Assembly (NCBI GenBank): GCA_964578535.1
Contig: CAZODI010000012.1
Coordinates: 20,183 to 84,182 of the forward strand
Source: an uncultured Syntrophaceae bacterium
GTDB taxonomy: Bacteria > Desulfobacterota > Syntrophia > Syntrophales > PHBD01
Direction of reading: 5' to 3'
DNA length: 64,000 nucleotides
A program made the translations under genes and the position numbers. Position 1 is the stretch's first letter. Each line of letters begins with the position of its first letter. The notes under the pieces are model-generated. The model was not told where the DNA came from. It saw only the letters and a program-made list of their open reading frames with translations, and made no database searches. Positions 29,397-34,003 of the stretch are shown here, one piece after another.

Positions 29397-32300
29397 ATGC
29401 CGAAGCGAAGCGACATCCAGAAAGTAATGATCATCGGCTCCGGCCCCATCGTCATCGGCCAGGCCTGCGAGTTCGACTATTCCGGCACCCAGGCGTGCAA
29501 GGCCCTCCGCAAGCTGGGCTACGAGATCGTCCTGGTCAACAGCAATCCCGCCACCATCATGACGGATCCGGGAATGGCCGACGTGACGTATATCGAGCCG
29601 CTGAACGCCGAATCCATGACGGAAATCATCGAAAACGAGCGGCCTGACGCAATCCTGCCCAACCTGGGCGGACAGACCGGGCTGAATCTGACCTCCGAGC
29701 TGGCCCGCCGGGGAGTCCTCGAAAAGTATGGAGTCAAGGTGATCGGCGTTCAGGTGGACGCCATCGAGCGGGGAGAGGACCGGATCGCCTTCAAGGAAAC
29801 CATGAACCGGCTCGGCATCGACATGCCGCGGAGCGAGCCGGCCTACACCGTCGAGGAGGCGGAAAAGATCGCCGTCCAGCTCGGCTATCCCGTCGTCATC
29901 CGCCCCGCCTATACCATGGGCGGCACCGGCGGCGGTCTCGTGTACAACCTGGAGGAGCTCCGCACGGTGGCCGGCCGCGGCATCTCCGCCAGCCTGGTTG
30001 GCCAGATCCTCGTGGAGGAATCGGTCCTGGGCTGGGAGGAACTGGAACTGGAAGTGGTGCGGGATGCCAAGAACCAGATGATCACCGTCTGCTTCATCGA
30101 AAACGTGGACGCCATGGGTGTCCATACGGGGGACTCCTACTGCACGGCCCCCATGCTCACCATCGCTGCCGAGCTCCAGGCCAGGCTACAGAAGTACTCC
30201 TACGATATCGTCGAGGCCATCCAGGTCATCGGCGGCACGAACATCCAGTTCGCCCACAACCCCGAGACGGGGCGGGTCGTGGTGATCGAGATCAATCCCC
30301 GGACGTCCCGTTCCTCCGCCCTGGCCTCCAAGGCCACGGGCTTCCCCATCGCCTTCGTGTCCTCGCTCCTGGCGGGAGGGATGACCCTCGACGAAATCCC
30401 CTACTGGCGAGAAGGGACCCTGGAAAAGTACACCCCCTGGGGCGACTATGTCGTCGTCAAGTTCGCCCGCTGGGACTTCGAGAAATTCAAGGGGTCCGTC
30501 GACCGGCTGGGCACCCAGATGCGGGCCGTGGGTGAGGTCATGAGCATCGGGAAGAACTACAAGGAAGCCTTCCAGAAGGCCATCCGCTCCCTGGAAAAGG
30601 GCCGCTACGGCCTGGGCTTCGTAAAGGACTTCAACCGGAGGCCCCTCGACGAGCTGATGGAGCTCCTGGCGGAGCCCTCCAGCGAGCGCCAGTTCATCCT
30701 CTACGAGGCCCTGCGGAAGGGGGCCACGGTAGAAGCCCTCGCGCGGAAAACCTACATCAAGGCCTGGTTCCTCTCGCAGATGAAGGAGCTGGTGGACCTG
30801 GAAGAAAAGATCCTGAAATACAGGGGCAACCCCCTGCCGGACGAGCTCCTGGCGCAGGCCAAGAAAGACGGCTTCGCCGACCGATACCTGGCGCAGATTC
30901 TCGGCGTGCCCGAGGCGGACATCCGCCGTCAGCGGATCGGCATCGGCATGCCCGAGGCCTGGCACGCCGTTCCCGTGAGCGGCGTGGAAAATGCCGCCTA
31001 CTACTACTCGACCTACAACGCCTCCGACGAGGTCCCCGTCAGCGACCGGCGGAAAATCATGGTCCTCGGGGGAGGCCCGAACCGGATCGGCCAGGGGATC
31101 GAGTTCGATTACTGCTGCGTCCACACCGCCTTCACCCTCCGGGATGAAGGACTCGAATCCATCATGGTGAACTGCAACCCCGAGACGGTCTCCACGGACT
31201 ACGACACCTCCGACAAGCTATACTTCGAGCCCCTGACGGTCGAGGACGTCCTGTCCATCCACGACAAGGAGAAGCCCGAGGGGGTCATCGTCCAGTTCGG
31301 AGGGCAGACGCCCCTGAATATCGCCGGCGAGCTTTCGAAGGCCGGTGTGAAGATCCTCGGAACGTCGCCGGAGACGATCGACCTGGCGGAGGATCGGGAC
31401 CGGTTCCGCCAGATGATGGTCAAGCTTGGCATTCCCATGCCCGAGTCCGGCATGGCCAGCACCATCGAGGAGGCCCTCCATGTTGCGACCCGCATCGGCT
31501 ACCCCCTGATGGTCCGGCCGTCCTATGTCCTGGGCGGAAGGGGCATGGAGATCGTCCATGACGAGGATATGCTCAGGCAGTACGTCTCCGCCGCCGTCGG
31601 CGTGACGCCGGAGCGCCCCATCCTCATCGACAAGTTCCTGGAGAACGCCATCGAGGCGGAAGCCGACGCCATCTCCGACGGGACCGACGCGTATGTCCCG
31701 GCCGTGATGGAGCACATCGAGCTGGCGGGAATCCATTCCGGCGACTCGGCCTGCGTCATCCCGCCCATCAGTATCCCCGCCCGTCACCTGGACACCATCG
31801 AGGAGTACACCCGCAAGATCGCCGTTGAGTTCAACGTGGTGGGGCTCATGAACATCCAGTACGCCATCGCCGGCGACACCGTCTACGTCCTGGAGGCGAA
31901 CCCCCGGGCATCGCGGACGGTGCCCCTCGTCTCAAAGGTGTGCGGCATCTCCATGGCCCGCCTGGCCACCCAGGTCATGCTGGGAAAGAAGCTGTCCGAC
32001 CTGAACCTGTCGACCCGGCGGTTTCCCCACTTCGGCGTCAAGGAGGCCGTGTTCCCCTTCAACATGTTCCAGGAAGTGGACCCCGTCCTGGGGCCCGAGA
32101 TGCGCTCCACCGGGGAGGTGCTGGGACTGGCGGATTCCTTCGGGCTGGCCTTCTACAAGGCCGAAGAGGCGGCCCAGCAGGTCCTTCCCGACACCGGCAC
32201 CGTCCTGATCACCGTGGAGGCCCAGGACAAGGGGGGCATCCTCCAGACGGCCAGGACGTTCCAGGACCTCGGGTTCCGGATCCTGGCCACGCAGGGAACC

Positions 32301-32626: not shown

Positions 32627-34003
32627 ATGGGAGGCGAGATCAAAGACAACTGCGGCGTGTTCGGGATCTATTCGACCCGGCCCTGCGTCTACGACATTTA
32701 CAACGGCCTCGATTTCATCCAGCACCGCGGACAGGAATACTGCGGGATCGCCACCTATGACGGCCGGATCCACCAGGTGACCCACCACGGCAAGGTCGGC
32801 AGCTCCTTCAGTACCGAGGACCTCTCCTACCTGCACGGGAACTGGGGCATCGGCCACGTGAGCCTCTGGGAGCGCCAGCCCATGAGCTGGCAATCCAAGG
32901 TGGGAGACATCTCCCTGGCCTTCAGCGGCAACATCATCAACGCCGAGGAACTCGTCGCCGACCTCAAGCAGCAGGGACACGCCTTCTATCGCGGATACAA
33001 CATTGAGGTCATTGCCAAGATCATCATGGAGTCCTCGGACATCCTGACGGGGATCAACTCCCTGGCGGAGCGGATCCGGGGGGCTTACTGCCTGGTGATC
33101 CTGGCGAAGGAAGGAATCTATGCGACCCGCGACCCATACGGGTTCCGGCCCCTGATCCTCGGCCGGGACGGGGAGCGGACCGCCGTCAGCTCCGAGTCGC
33201 GGGCCCTGCAGAACCTGGAGATGGAGATCCTCCGGGACGTCCGCCCGGGAGAGACGGTCCTCATCGACGGCCACGGATTCCGCACCGTCGCCCAGATCCC
33301 GTCGCCCCGCAAGGCGCACTGCGCCTTCGAGTGGGCCTACACGGCCAGCATCGACTCCATCATCGACGGCCTGTACGTCCAGGAGGCCCGCAACTGCATC
33401 GGCCGGAGCCTGGCCCGCCGGGACCGCGAAGAAGGCAGCCCGCAGGCGGACCTGGTTTCGCCCGTGCCCATGTCCGGAATCGGACACGCCGTGGGCTACC
33501 ACCAGGAATCCGGCATCCCCTACCAGGAGGTTTTCCTCTACAACCGGTACGCCGACCGGAGCTACACCCAGTCGACCCAGGACGCCCGGAGCCGCATGGC
33601 CAAGCGCAAACTCTCGGTGCTGCGGTACGCCGTGAAGGGAAAGCGGATCGTCATCTGCGACGACTCGATCGTCCGGGGGACGCAGATCCTTTACAAAGTG
33701 AGGGACCTGAAGGAGGCCGGGGCCGAGGAGGTCCATGTGCGGATTGCCTGCCCGCCCCTGATGTACCCTTGCGATTTCGGCATCTCCACCCGGTCGTACG
33801 ACGAACTGACGGCCCGGAGCTTCTTCCGGACCGGCGATATCGAGTCGATGGACCAGTTGCGGGAACTGGAGCGGTGGGTGGCGGACCAGATCGGGGCCGA
33901 TTCGGTCAAGTACAACAGTACCGAGGCCTTCGTGGCCGCCCTGGGGCTGCCCCGCGGGGACCTGTGCCTGAAATGCTTTGACGGCAGCGTTCCGATCCCC
34001 TGA
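32627..34003 (+). CDS. amidophosphoribosyltransferase-like protein (divergent PurF paralog)
   Basis: 458 aa from ATG 32627 (RBS GAGGAGG). Ntn propeptide then CGVFG. PRPP loop RIVICDDSIVRGTQ. Cys-containing C-terminal segments (CPPLMYPCDFG, CLKC). Glutamine-site positions differ from the canonical copy at 56091. Confidence 0.85.
   Translation: MGGEIKDNCGVFGIYSTRPCVYDIYNGLDFIQHRGQEYCGIATYDGRIHQVTHHGKVGSSFSTEDLSYLHGNWGIGHVSLWERQPMSWQSKVGDISLAFSGNIINAEELVADLKQQGHAFYRGYNIEVIAKIIMESSDILTGINSLAERIRGAYCLVILAKEGIYATRDPYGFRPLILGRDGERTAVSSESRALQNLEMEILRDVRPGETVLIDGHGFRTVAQIPSPRKAHCAFEWAYTASIDSIIDGLYVQEARNCIGRSLARRDREEGSPQADLVSPVPMSGIGHAVGYHQESGIPYQEVFLYNRYADRSYTQSTQDARSRMAKRKLSVLRYAVKGKRIVICDDSIVRGTQILYKVRDLKEAGAEEVHVRIACPPLMYPCDFGISTRSYDELTARSFFRTGDIESMDQLRELERWVADQIGADSVKYNSTEAFVAALGLPRGDLCLKCFDGSVPIP

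Follow-up and report, generated by a model that had tools for sequence, protein, structure and literature searches.

An orphan carB gene and a divergent PurF paralog in a Syntrophaceae genome: a candidate ammonia-route enzyme pair

Two carB-purF pairs in the window

The stretch of DNA analyzed here (the window, 64,000 nucleotides of contig CAZODI010000012.1) comes from an uncultured Syntrophaceae bacterium of the order Syntrophales and contains two carB-purF gene pairs, one formed by carB1 and a purF-like gene and the other by carB2 and a canonical purF. The corresponding bacterial enzymes, carbamoyl phosphate synthetase (CPS), of which CarB is the large subunit, and the phosphoribosyl pyrophosphate (PRPP) amidotransferase PurF, are described in textbooks as glutamine-dependent. 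The first pair is considered here as a candidate for an ammonia-dependent entry into nucleotide and arginine synthesis.

The gene carB1 (29397-32597, plus strand) encodes an orphan CPS large subunit of 1066 amino acids, which scores 1502.8 bits against NF003671 (cut-off 599) and 1351.7 bits against TIGR01369 (cut-off 1027). It is followed, after a 29-nt spacer in which a ribosome-binding site GAGGAGG can be read (32610-32616, plus strand), by the purF-like gene (32627-34003, plus strand, ATG start at 32627), whose product of 458 amino acids was assigned by profile search, alignments, and a tree to type A of a clade termed PurF-II below. No terminator-like site was found between the two genes. 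About 20 kb downstream, the canonical set carA-guaA-carB2-purF (50155-57533) comprises carA (50155-51306), which is the sole small-subunit gene of the genome and stands with carB2, guaA (51303-52832; GMP synthase, named from reading of its translation), carB2 (52835-56068; GTG start, canonical large subunit of 1077 amino acids, 1723 bits against NF003671), and the canonical purF (56091-57533; 480 amino acids, 517.6 bits against TIGR01134 with its cut-off of 350), all on the plus strand. The four glutamine-dependent enzymes of this cluster are encoded co-directionally, the guaA stop codon nearly touches the GTG of carB2, and the carB2-purF neighborhood is kept across the Syntrophales. The original prediction, made from the letters of the sequence, had described the gene pair as occurring twice with two full-length CarB copies, of which only the second had a carA partner in the window. 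Both pairs were found as described, and even the whole 3.65-Mb assembly contains two carB genes, two purF-type genes, and a single carA.

A sigma-70-type promoter of its own had also been proposed for the carB1 unit. The sequence TTGACA-N17-TATATA upstream of carB1 (29248-29276, plus strand) is very likely a real promoter, as in 11 diverged relatives with unalignable flanks both hexamers are kept in the form TTGACA-N17-TATAGT or TATATT. Its -35 element matches the consensus in 6/6 and its -10 element in 4/6 positions; the latter lacks the final T, which is why the promoter was absent from the consensus-scan list. The leader of about 120 nt (29277-29396, plus strand) is conserved in the closest relatives (L002-L004), not beyond, and matched no Rfam family at the gathering threshold or at E<=1, save one chance-level small RNA match. 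A riboswitch or other known RNA was rejected on these grounds. Just 3' of the -10 element lies the perfect palindrome CAACCGGTTG (29281-29290, plus strand), which is kept in no more than the three closest relatives and is a possible operator. An NrpR operator was rejected as well, since the motif GGAA-N6-TTCC occurs five times in the window, a count near chance, and at no site upstream of carB1.

It had further been considered that the first pair might consist of recent xenologs whose adjacency is not conserved in relatives, which was not borne out. The G+C content of carB1 (0.640) and of the purF-like gene (0.646) matches that of the window (0.636), as does that of all five genes, and the adjacency is kept across the order. 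Recent horizontal acquisition of the carB1 pair was rejected for the same reasons.

CarB1, the PurF-like protein, and glutamine use

Relatives of both genes, all of them from metagenome bins, were first found by scanning species-representative genomes; an order sample (61 Syntrophales genomes) and a phylum sample (101 genomes) were used for comparison. CarB1 is full length and 54% identical to CarB2, and the identity to E. coli CarB amounts to 50% for CarB1 and 60% for CarB2. All Pfam domains were found in CarB1, including the two ATP-grasp halves, the oligomerization domain, and the MGS-like allosteric domain. An alignment was made of 36 CarB1, 17 CarB2, and four sequences of a third type ("CarB3") with E. 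coli CarB, the latter rebuilt from PDB alignments. Here, CarB1 keeps the checked residues at both ATP sites, in the carbamate tunnel, in the K+ loops, and at the ornithine site, together with most of those at the UMP/IMP site. The residue roles at CarB and PurF sites follow the structural literature on the E. coli enzymes. By this list, 32/32 positions at the ATP sites and in the carbamate tunnel are invariant in the 36 CarB1 sequences. About 60 CarB1-specific replacements fall at positions that are conserved in other CarBs, most densely at 214-261, 337-339, and 530-541. The changes specific to the clade include T249C, Y261Q, and R265Q; in E. coli, Y261 and R265 belong to the wall of the ammonia tunnel at the CarA interface.

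Identity among CarB1 proteins ranges from 75 to 96% within the order and from 73 to 83% across the phylum, where 35/101 genomes carry CarB1. Elsewhere, it was found in Acidobacteriota (75-76% identity), one Chloroflexota genome (72%), and one Omnitrophota genome (65%), and with the Acidobacteriota and Chloroflexota proteins of the CarB1 type CarB1 shares more residues (72-77% identity) than with the CarB2 of its own genome. No carA gene was found next to carB1 in any genome examined; carA occurs once per genome and always adjoins the canonical carB. Moreover, in G026 (99% complete) and in G093 (98% complete, from another family of the phylum) CarB1 is the only CarB, and no CarA N-domain (PF00988) is present. 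The same pattern was observed in G033, G004, G028, G044, and the Chloroflexota genome G076. The gene before the canonical purF in G026 is glnA and not carB2, on a contig that continues for 9 kb upstream, so the absence is not a contig-edge artefact. All CarB1-only genomes encode one or two carbamoyltransferases, so carbamoyl phosphate is needed there. The absence of CarA is weak evidence in each single bin, but the pattern across independent lineages is not. In one genome of the phylum sample (G107, C33:84-6531), a CarB1-type gene and a canonical-type carB stand in tandem at a distance of 20 nt, and carA lies on another contig.

The PurF-like protein is 36% identical to the canonical PurF of the window and HMMER aligns it with PurF of B. 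subtilis (1GPH) over the full length (E=1e-75). With 332.2 bits against TIGR01134, it falls under the cut-off that the canonical copy clears. As had been predicted, the cysteine of the N-terminal nucleophile (Ntn) domain and the PRPP loop are kept in the alignment to 1GPH and in the family alignment: Cys1 stands behind an eight-residue propeptide (MGGEIKDN/CGVFG), and H25-R26-G27, G103, the four Fe-S cysteines, and DDSIVRGT are present. Three substitutions at the glutamine site, originally read by eye, were recovered in the HMMER alignment to 1GPH, namely R72 (E. coli R73) to S, N102 (N101) to S, and D127 to N, so that the glycine is the sole member of the Arg73/Asn101-Gly102/Asp127 set that is retained. 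The loss of the arginine proved larger than proposed. It is part of an eight-residue loop deletion that also takes away the equivalents of Tyr74 and Thr76 in the family alignment. D127N, on the other hand, is not a family trait, as orthologues have N, D, H, A, or Q there. The family alignment also revealed K305 (E. coli K326) replaced by Tyr and I314 (I335) by Thr; in addition, VPDS has become VPMS and a C-terminal insert of 13 residues is present. The canonical PurF of the window has the glutamine-site R, N, and D and falls together with the enzymes of B. subtilis and Arabidopsis in the tree. The residues lacking in the PurF-like protein are reportedly key for glutamine use, according to the mutagenesis of E. 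coli PurF by Kim et al. in 1996.

Both genes of the first pair might encode ordinary redundant isozymes. CarB1 would then share CarA with CarB2, the two being arginine- and pyrimidine-specific as in Bacillus, and the PurF-like protein would be a divergent working PurF. The ornithine-site, tunnel gate, and most UMP/IMP-site residues kept in both CarBs agree with this view, as do the databases, which name CarB1 and the PurF-like protein as standard enzymes. However, a bacterium with separate CPSs for two pathways has a second small subunit as well, whereas here there is one, always together with carB2. Furthermore, the carB1 unit does not stand beside arg or pyr genes, the CarB1-only genomes lack CarA altogether, and the PurF-like protein is without the residues reported as key for glutamine use and scores under the TIGR01134 cut-off. 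Plain redundancy with a shared CarA fits worst among the explanations considered, and we regard redundant isozymes as improbable.

The PurF-II clade and its coupling to CarB1

Orthologues of the PurF-like protein at 52-82% identity (type A) were found in Syntrophales, two Chloroflexota, one unclassified archaeon, and one Bathyarchaeota genome. A more distant set at 33-41% identity (type B) is present in Omnitrophota, Planctomycetota, Acidobacteriota, Bacteroidales, and many Syntrophales and has Ser, Gly, or Ala at Cys1 and HLGT for HRGQ. Common to both types are the loop deletion, CDDSIVRGTQ, the RSYT flexible loop, CPPL, and the 13-residue C-terminal insert. Across types A and B, the PRPP loop C344-D346-S-I-V-R-G-T-Q353, R311, and K328 are invariant, and the same holds for the [4Fe-4S] ligands C232, C382, C447, and C450. 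In a maximum likelihood tree (IQ-TREE quick search, LG+G4, 79 rows; SH-aLRT support only), A and B form one clade (PurF-II, SH-aLRT 100), in which each type is a single group (A 93, B 100). The canonical clade (96), with the purF of the window, B. subtilis PurF, and Arabidopsis ASE2, stands apart from it. A PurF-II profile separated both kinds cleanly in the phylum sample (494-717 bits for PurF-II vs <=345 bits for canonical PurF). Based on these sequences, it is most economical to assume that the common ancestor lost the glutamine-recognition loop first and that type B lost the nucleophile later. The separate clade and the shared losses rule out a recent duplication of the Syntrophales purF. 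An old module duplication followed by neofunctionalization had originally been supposed. The part of an old, conserved, and separately promoted pair stands, but the duplication does not, as the PurF-like protein does not branch as a sister of the Syntrophales purF and belongs to a separate multi-phylum clade with an SH-aLRT support of 100. Both the PurF tree and the CarB identities contradict a local duplication of the carB-purF module in this lineage, which was rejected.

Among the 61 Syntrophales genomes, 20 have type A, 32 have type B (verified by alignment in 16 of the 32), nine have neither, and none has both, a lack of overlap with a hypergeometric P of 1.6e-9 that is uncorrected for phylogeny. 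As A and B replace each other genome for genome, they probably do the same job, which suggests one shared role that does not require the nucleophile. The canonical purF is present in nearly all 61 genomes, usually directly 3' of carB2. Cases in which PurF-II appeared, at the threshold applied, to be the sole PurF (Bacteroidales, Omnitrophota, one Desulfobacterota bin) can be explained by a divergent long-type PurF (G066) and by contig breaks.

PurF-II and CarB1 occur together. In the phylum sample, 19/19 PurF-II genomes carry CarB1 (P=2.5e-11), which corresponds to 13/13 when counted by family (P=5e-7); these P values, like the further co-occurrence value below, are not fully corrected for phylogeny. 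Type A adjoins carB1 in 17/20 cases of the order sample and lies directly 3' of it in nearly every Syntrophales locus with enough upstream sequence. Type A is unlinked from carB1 in family f20, where it has a 25-residue insert. A type A subgroup (L119-L122, in G020, G040, G028, and G058) shows an acidic insert of about 25 residues after HRGQEYCGI. Type B usually lies elsewhere in the genome and adjoins carB1 in four lineages in both orders, with carB1 first in L044 and G007 and type B first in G157 and G120. CarB1 without type A was found in about half of the genomes having CarB1.

In the order sample, 50/52 PurF-II genomes have a glutaminase-less CPS, either the orphan CarB1 or CarB3 with a dead CarA. 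Syntrophales that have type B and no CarB1 carry instead this third CarB together with a CarA that lacks Cys269 and His353. In the CarA-like gene beside the third CarB, Cys269 is replaced by Ala, Ser, Met, or Leu and His353 by Ser, Leu, Thr, or Val; judged by these replacements, it is a CPS1-like dead glutaminase in bacteria. The third CarB is found in some Syntrophales families (L141-L148, in G030, G003, G017, G008, G037, G049, G046, and G005) and is 54-55% identical to CarB1 and about 61% to CarB2; in its CarA-like neighbor, Glu355 is lost alongside His353. A DUF1846 (PyrJ-like) gene is present in 35/61 Syntrophales genomes, and 35/35 of these also carry PurF-II (P=2e-4). The genome studied here has such a gene on another contig (C8:6783-7775, minus strand).

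Outside the order, PurF-II genes occur in purine loci, in which gene names come from reading of representative sequences. In Omnitrophota and Planctomycetota, type B lies within purB-purL-LOG-[B]-purM...purD-purE, with a canonical purF directly 3' in one locus, and in the Bathyarchaeota genome type A lies within purE-purC-purB-[A]...purL. These contexts tie PurF-II to purine synthesis and not to carbamoyl phosphate synthesis as such. In the two Chloroflexota and the one archaeon, a third PurF type of about 520 amino acids adjoins type A (L036:3422-4900, L037:6948-8423, L038:7157-8635); it has HRGQN and FNGH, keeps the Arg, Asn, and Asp, and belongs to neither the canonical nor the PurF-II clade in the tree. 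In Syntrophales (L065-L080), type B stands in a housekeeping block (pssA-asd-rsmD-coaD-aspartate aminotransferase-[B]-ispG-proS-relA-amiC-rph), always directly 3' of the aspartate aminotransferase gene. A literature search found no paper on these PurF paralogs, nor on Syntrophus carB.

The coupling raises the question of a physical partnership, in which PurF-II and CarB1 would form one ammonia-capturing machine with the Ntn domain docked at the place of CarA on CarB1. From there, PurF-II would supply both the CarB tunnel and its own PRPP site with ammonia or control the flow into them, with type A delivering ammonia that could stem from a non-glutamine amide split by Cys1 and type B organizing the tunnel entrance, and the first steps of purine and pyrimidine synthesis would be coordinated in anaerobes of ammonium-rich habitats. 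The tight adjacency with its 29-nt spacer, the co-occurrence in 19/19 genomes, the adjacency in both gene orders, and the clustering of CarB1-specific changes at 214-265, 337-339, and 530-541, those of the tunnel-wall residues Y261 and R265 among them, speak for a complex. It is nevertheless opposed by type B, which has no nucleophile, by the many genomes with CarB1 and no adjacent PurF-II, by the three Syntrophales type A genes that are unlinked from carB1, and by the invariant PRPP site of a clade that in other phyla stands in pur operons without carB. Such a complex is possible, not needed, and in our estimate quite unlikely. The original prediction had offered two functional ideas, of which that of an ammonia- or other-amide-dependent PRPP amidotransferase is favored. 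The second idea, a class II amidotransferase at the service of the orphan CarB, is disfavored, since the Cys-less type B is incapable of Ntn amide hydrolysis and adjoins CarB1 in the same way as type A, about half of the CarB1 genomes lack type A, the PRPP site is invariant, and relatives stand in pur operons.

A possible ammonia route and its precedents

The explanation we prefer, to which we give even weight for and against, is that CarB1 and PurF-II are a pair of ammonia-route isozymes, both enzymes taken together. carB1 and the purF-like gene would form one transcription unit for glutamine-independent isozymes of the steps that enter pyrimidine and arginine synthesis (CarB1) and purine synthesis (PurF-II). 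CarB1 would work without a glutaminase subunit and take up free ammonia. PurF-II type A keeps the PRPP site, the flexible-loop Arg/Lys, and the [4Fe-4S] cluster and has lost the loop (Arg73, Tyr74, Thr76) that serves glutamine recognition and the gating of the ammonia channel. Phosphoribosylamine would then be made from PRPP and directly entering ammonia, a reaction for which the places of the relatives in pur operons provide contextual backing. From the sequences, we infer ammonia as a likely substrate of either enzyme.

Downstream of the pair lie a convergent M29 aminopeptidase gene (34074-35327, minus strand; PF02073, E=5e-103), nrpR (35379-36566, plus strand; domains PF01995 and PF08461), and a glutamate-dehydrogenase-like gene (36598-37953, plus strand; a listed open reading frame), and NrpR-like and GdhA-like families follow the carB1/PurF-II pair in the family-level relatives L002, L003, L007, and L034. 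A nitrogen-dependent division of labor between the two sets can be envisaged. The canonical set carA-guaA-carB2-purF would serve under nitrogen scarcity with nitrogen passing via glutamine, and the carB1/PurF-II unit, near nrpR-gdhA, would serve under plentiful ammonium, when the ATP cost of glutamine synthesis could be saved.

Several observations weigh against an ammonia route for both enzymes, and the main fact that it leaves unexplained is the apparently functional Ntn site of type A. H25-R26-G27-Q28 and G103 are invariant in type A from Syntrophales to archaea, as is the Arg of LWERQP, which is not invariant in type B. Unlike in a dead site, Cys1, the propeptide, HRGQ, and G103 do not vary, which argues that type A still hydrolyzes some amide. 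Every PurF-II genome also seems to keep a canonical purF where the assembly permits a check. On the side of CarB1, the ammonia-tunnel gate residues C232, A251, and A314 are kept, which makes it possible that CarB1 docks or shares the single CarA; in addition, the CarA-less genomes are metagenome bins. Finally, the Bacteroides precedent discussed below is an analogy and not an orthology, as CarB1 is only about 40% identical to the searchable Prevotella CarB matches.

The points on the Ntn site can be read to the effect that type A is still an amidotransferase, in which Cys1 hydrolyzes an amide and the ammonia is channeled to PRPP. The pairing with CarB1, itself ammonia-dependent or sharing CarA, would then reflect co-regulation only. 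The donor would be another amide, or glutamine might still be used if the Arg of LWERQP, which is near the Gln-Pro conserved in the glutamine pocket, replaced Arg73. The invariance of Cys1, propeptide, HRGQ, and G103 in 44/44 type A sequences fits this alternative, as do the conservation of the LWERQP Arg in A and not in B and the Asn101 still present in type A proteins from Chloroflexota and archaea. On the other hand, Arg73, Tyr74, and Thr76 are gone with the deleted loop, no fixed residue stands at the Asp127 position, and the nucleophile-less sister type B, which takes the place of A genome for genome in the order, is linked to CarB1 as well. An amidotransferase function of type A is a serious alternative to ammonia-route isozymes, if a rather unlikely one.

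The genes concerned are labeled uniformly as "amidophosphoribosyltransferase" and "carB", and yet they form a large, strongly conserved, and genomically coupled group that spans Thermodesulfobacteriota, Acidobacteriota, Chloroflexota, Omnitrophota, and some archaea. It suggests that nucleotide and arginine synthesis may be entered on a path that bypasses glutamine. Syntrophs live near the thermodynamic limit, and the one ATP per nitrogen saved by skipping glutamine synthetase could be a selective advantage to them. If ammonia-route isozymes are indeed encoded, the annotation of thousands of genes would have to be corrected, the idea of an ammonium-dependent CPS, which stems from Bacteroides, would also cover a second, unrelated clade of CarB, and types A and B would provide a natural before-and-after series for an amidotransferase that sheds its glutaminase function.

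Among known systems, the PurF of the [4Fe-4S] type from B. subtilis (1GPH/1AO0) has the same architecture as the PurF-like protein, with an Ntn domain and a type I phosphoribosyltransferase domain. The two share the propeptide with Cys1, the four Fe-S cysteines, the DDSIVRGT loop, and the flexible-loop Arg. They differ in that the PurF-like protein has the eight-residue deletion, N101S, the variable D127 position, K326Y, I335T, VPMS, the C-terminal insert, a profile score under the cut-off, and a clade shared with the Cys-less type B. CarB1 aligns with the large subunit of E. coli CarAB (1BXR, 1JDB) over residues 1-1056 with the checked catalytic residues conserved; unlike the E. coli enzyme, it has no CarA gene of its own and carries Y261Q, R265Q, and T249C together with about 57 further clade-specific replacements.

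The closest functional parallel for CarB1 is the lone CarB2 of B. thetaiotaomicron (BT3866), which was reported to be important for fitness with ammonium present (Liu et al. 2021, PMC8121099). An ammonium-dependent CPS in bacteria is put forward by the same authors, who also point out that E. coli CarB, when isolated, uses ammonia. Like CarB1, BT3866 is a full-length large subunit without a glutaminase partner alongside a canonical carAB. The canonical carAB of B. thetaiotaomicron lies in an ammonium-scavenging locus, whose counterpart here would be carA-guaA-carB2-purF. An orphan large subunit alongside a canonical carAB in a nitrogen-scavenging locus, as that locus is described (PMC8121099), is found in the present genome as well. 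The word purF does not occur in the text of Liu et al. 2021, and an operon link to a PurF paralog is therefore not part of that precedent. A wider parallel is given by vertebrate CPS1 and by PyrJ (DUF1846), a CTP synthase that uses ammonia only (2024 preprint, 10.1101/2024.09.24.614635). In both, a glutamine-dependent step is served by an enzyme unable to use glutamine, which is the logic proposed here for CarB1 and PurF-II. PyrJ has an unrelated fold, and the fused, inactive glutaminase domain that CPS1 has kept is missing from CarB1; it is those Syntrophales whose CarA lacks the catalytic Cys and His that resemble CPS1.

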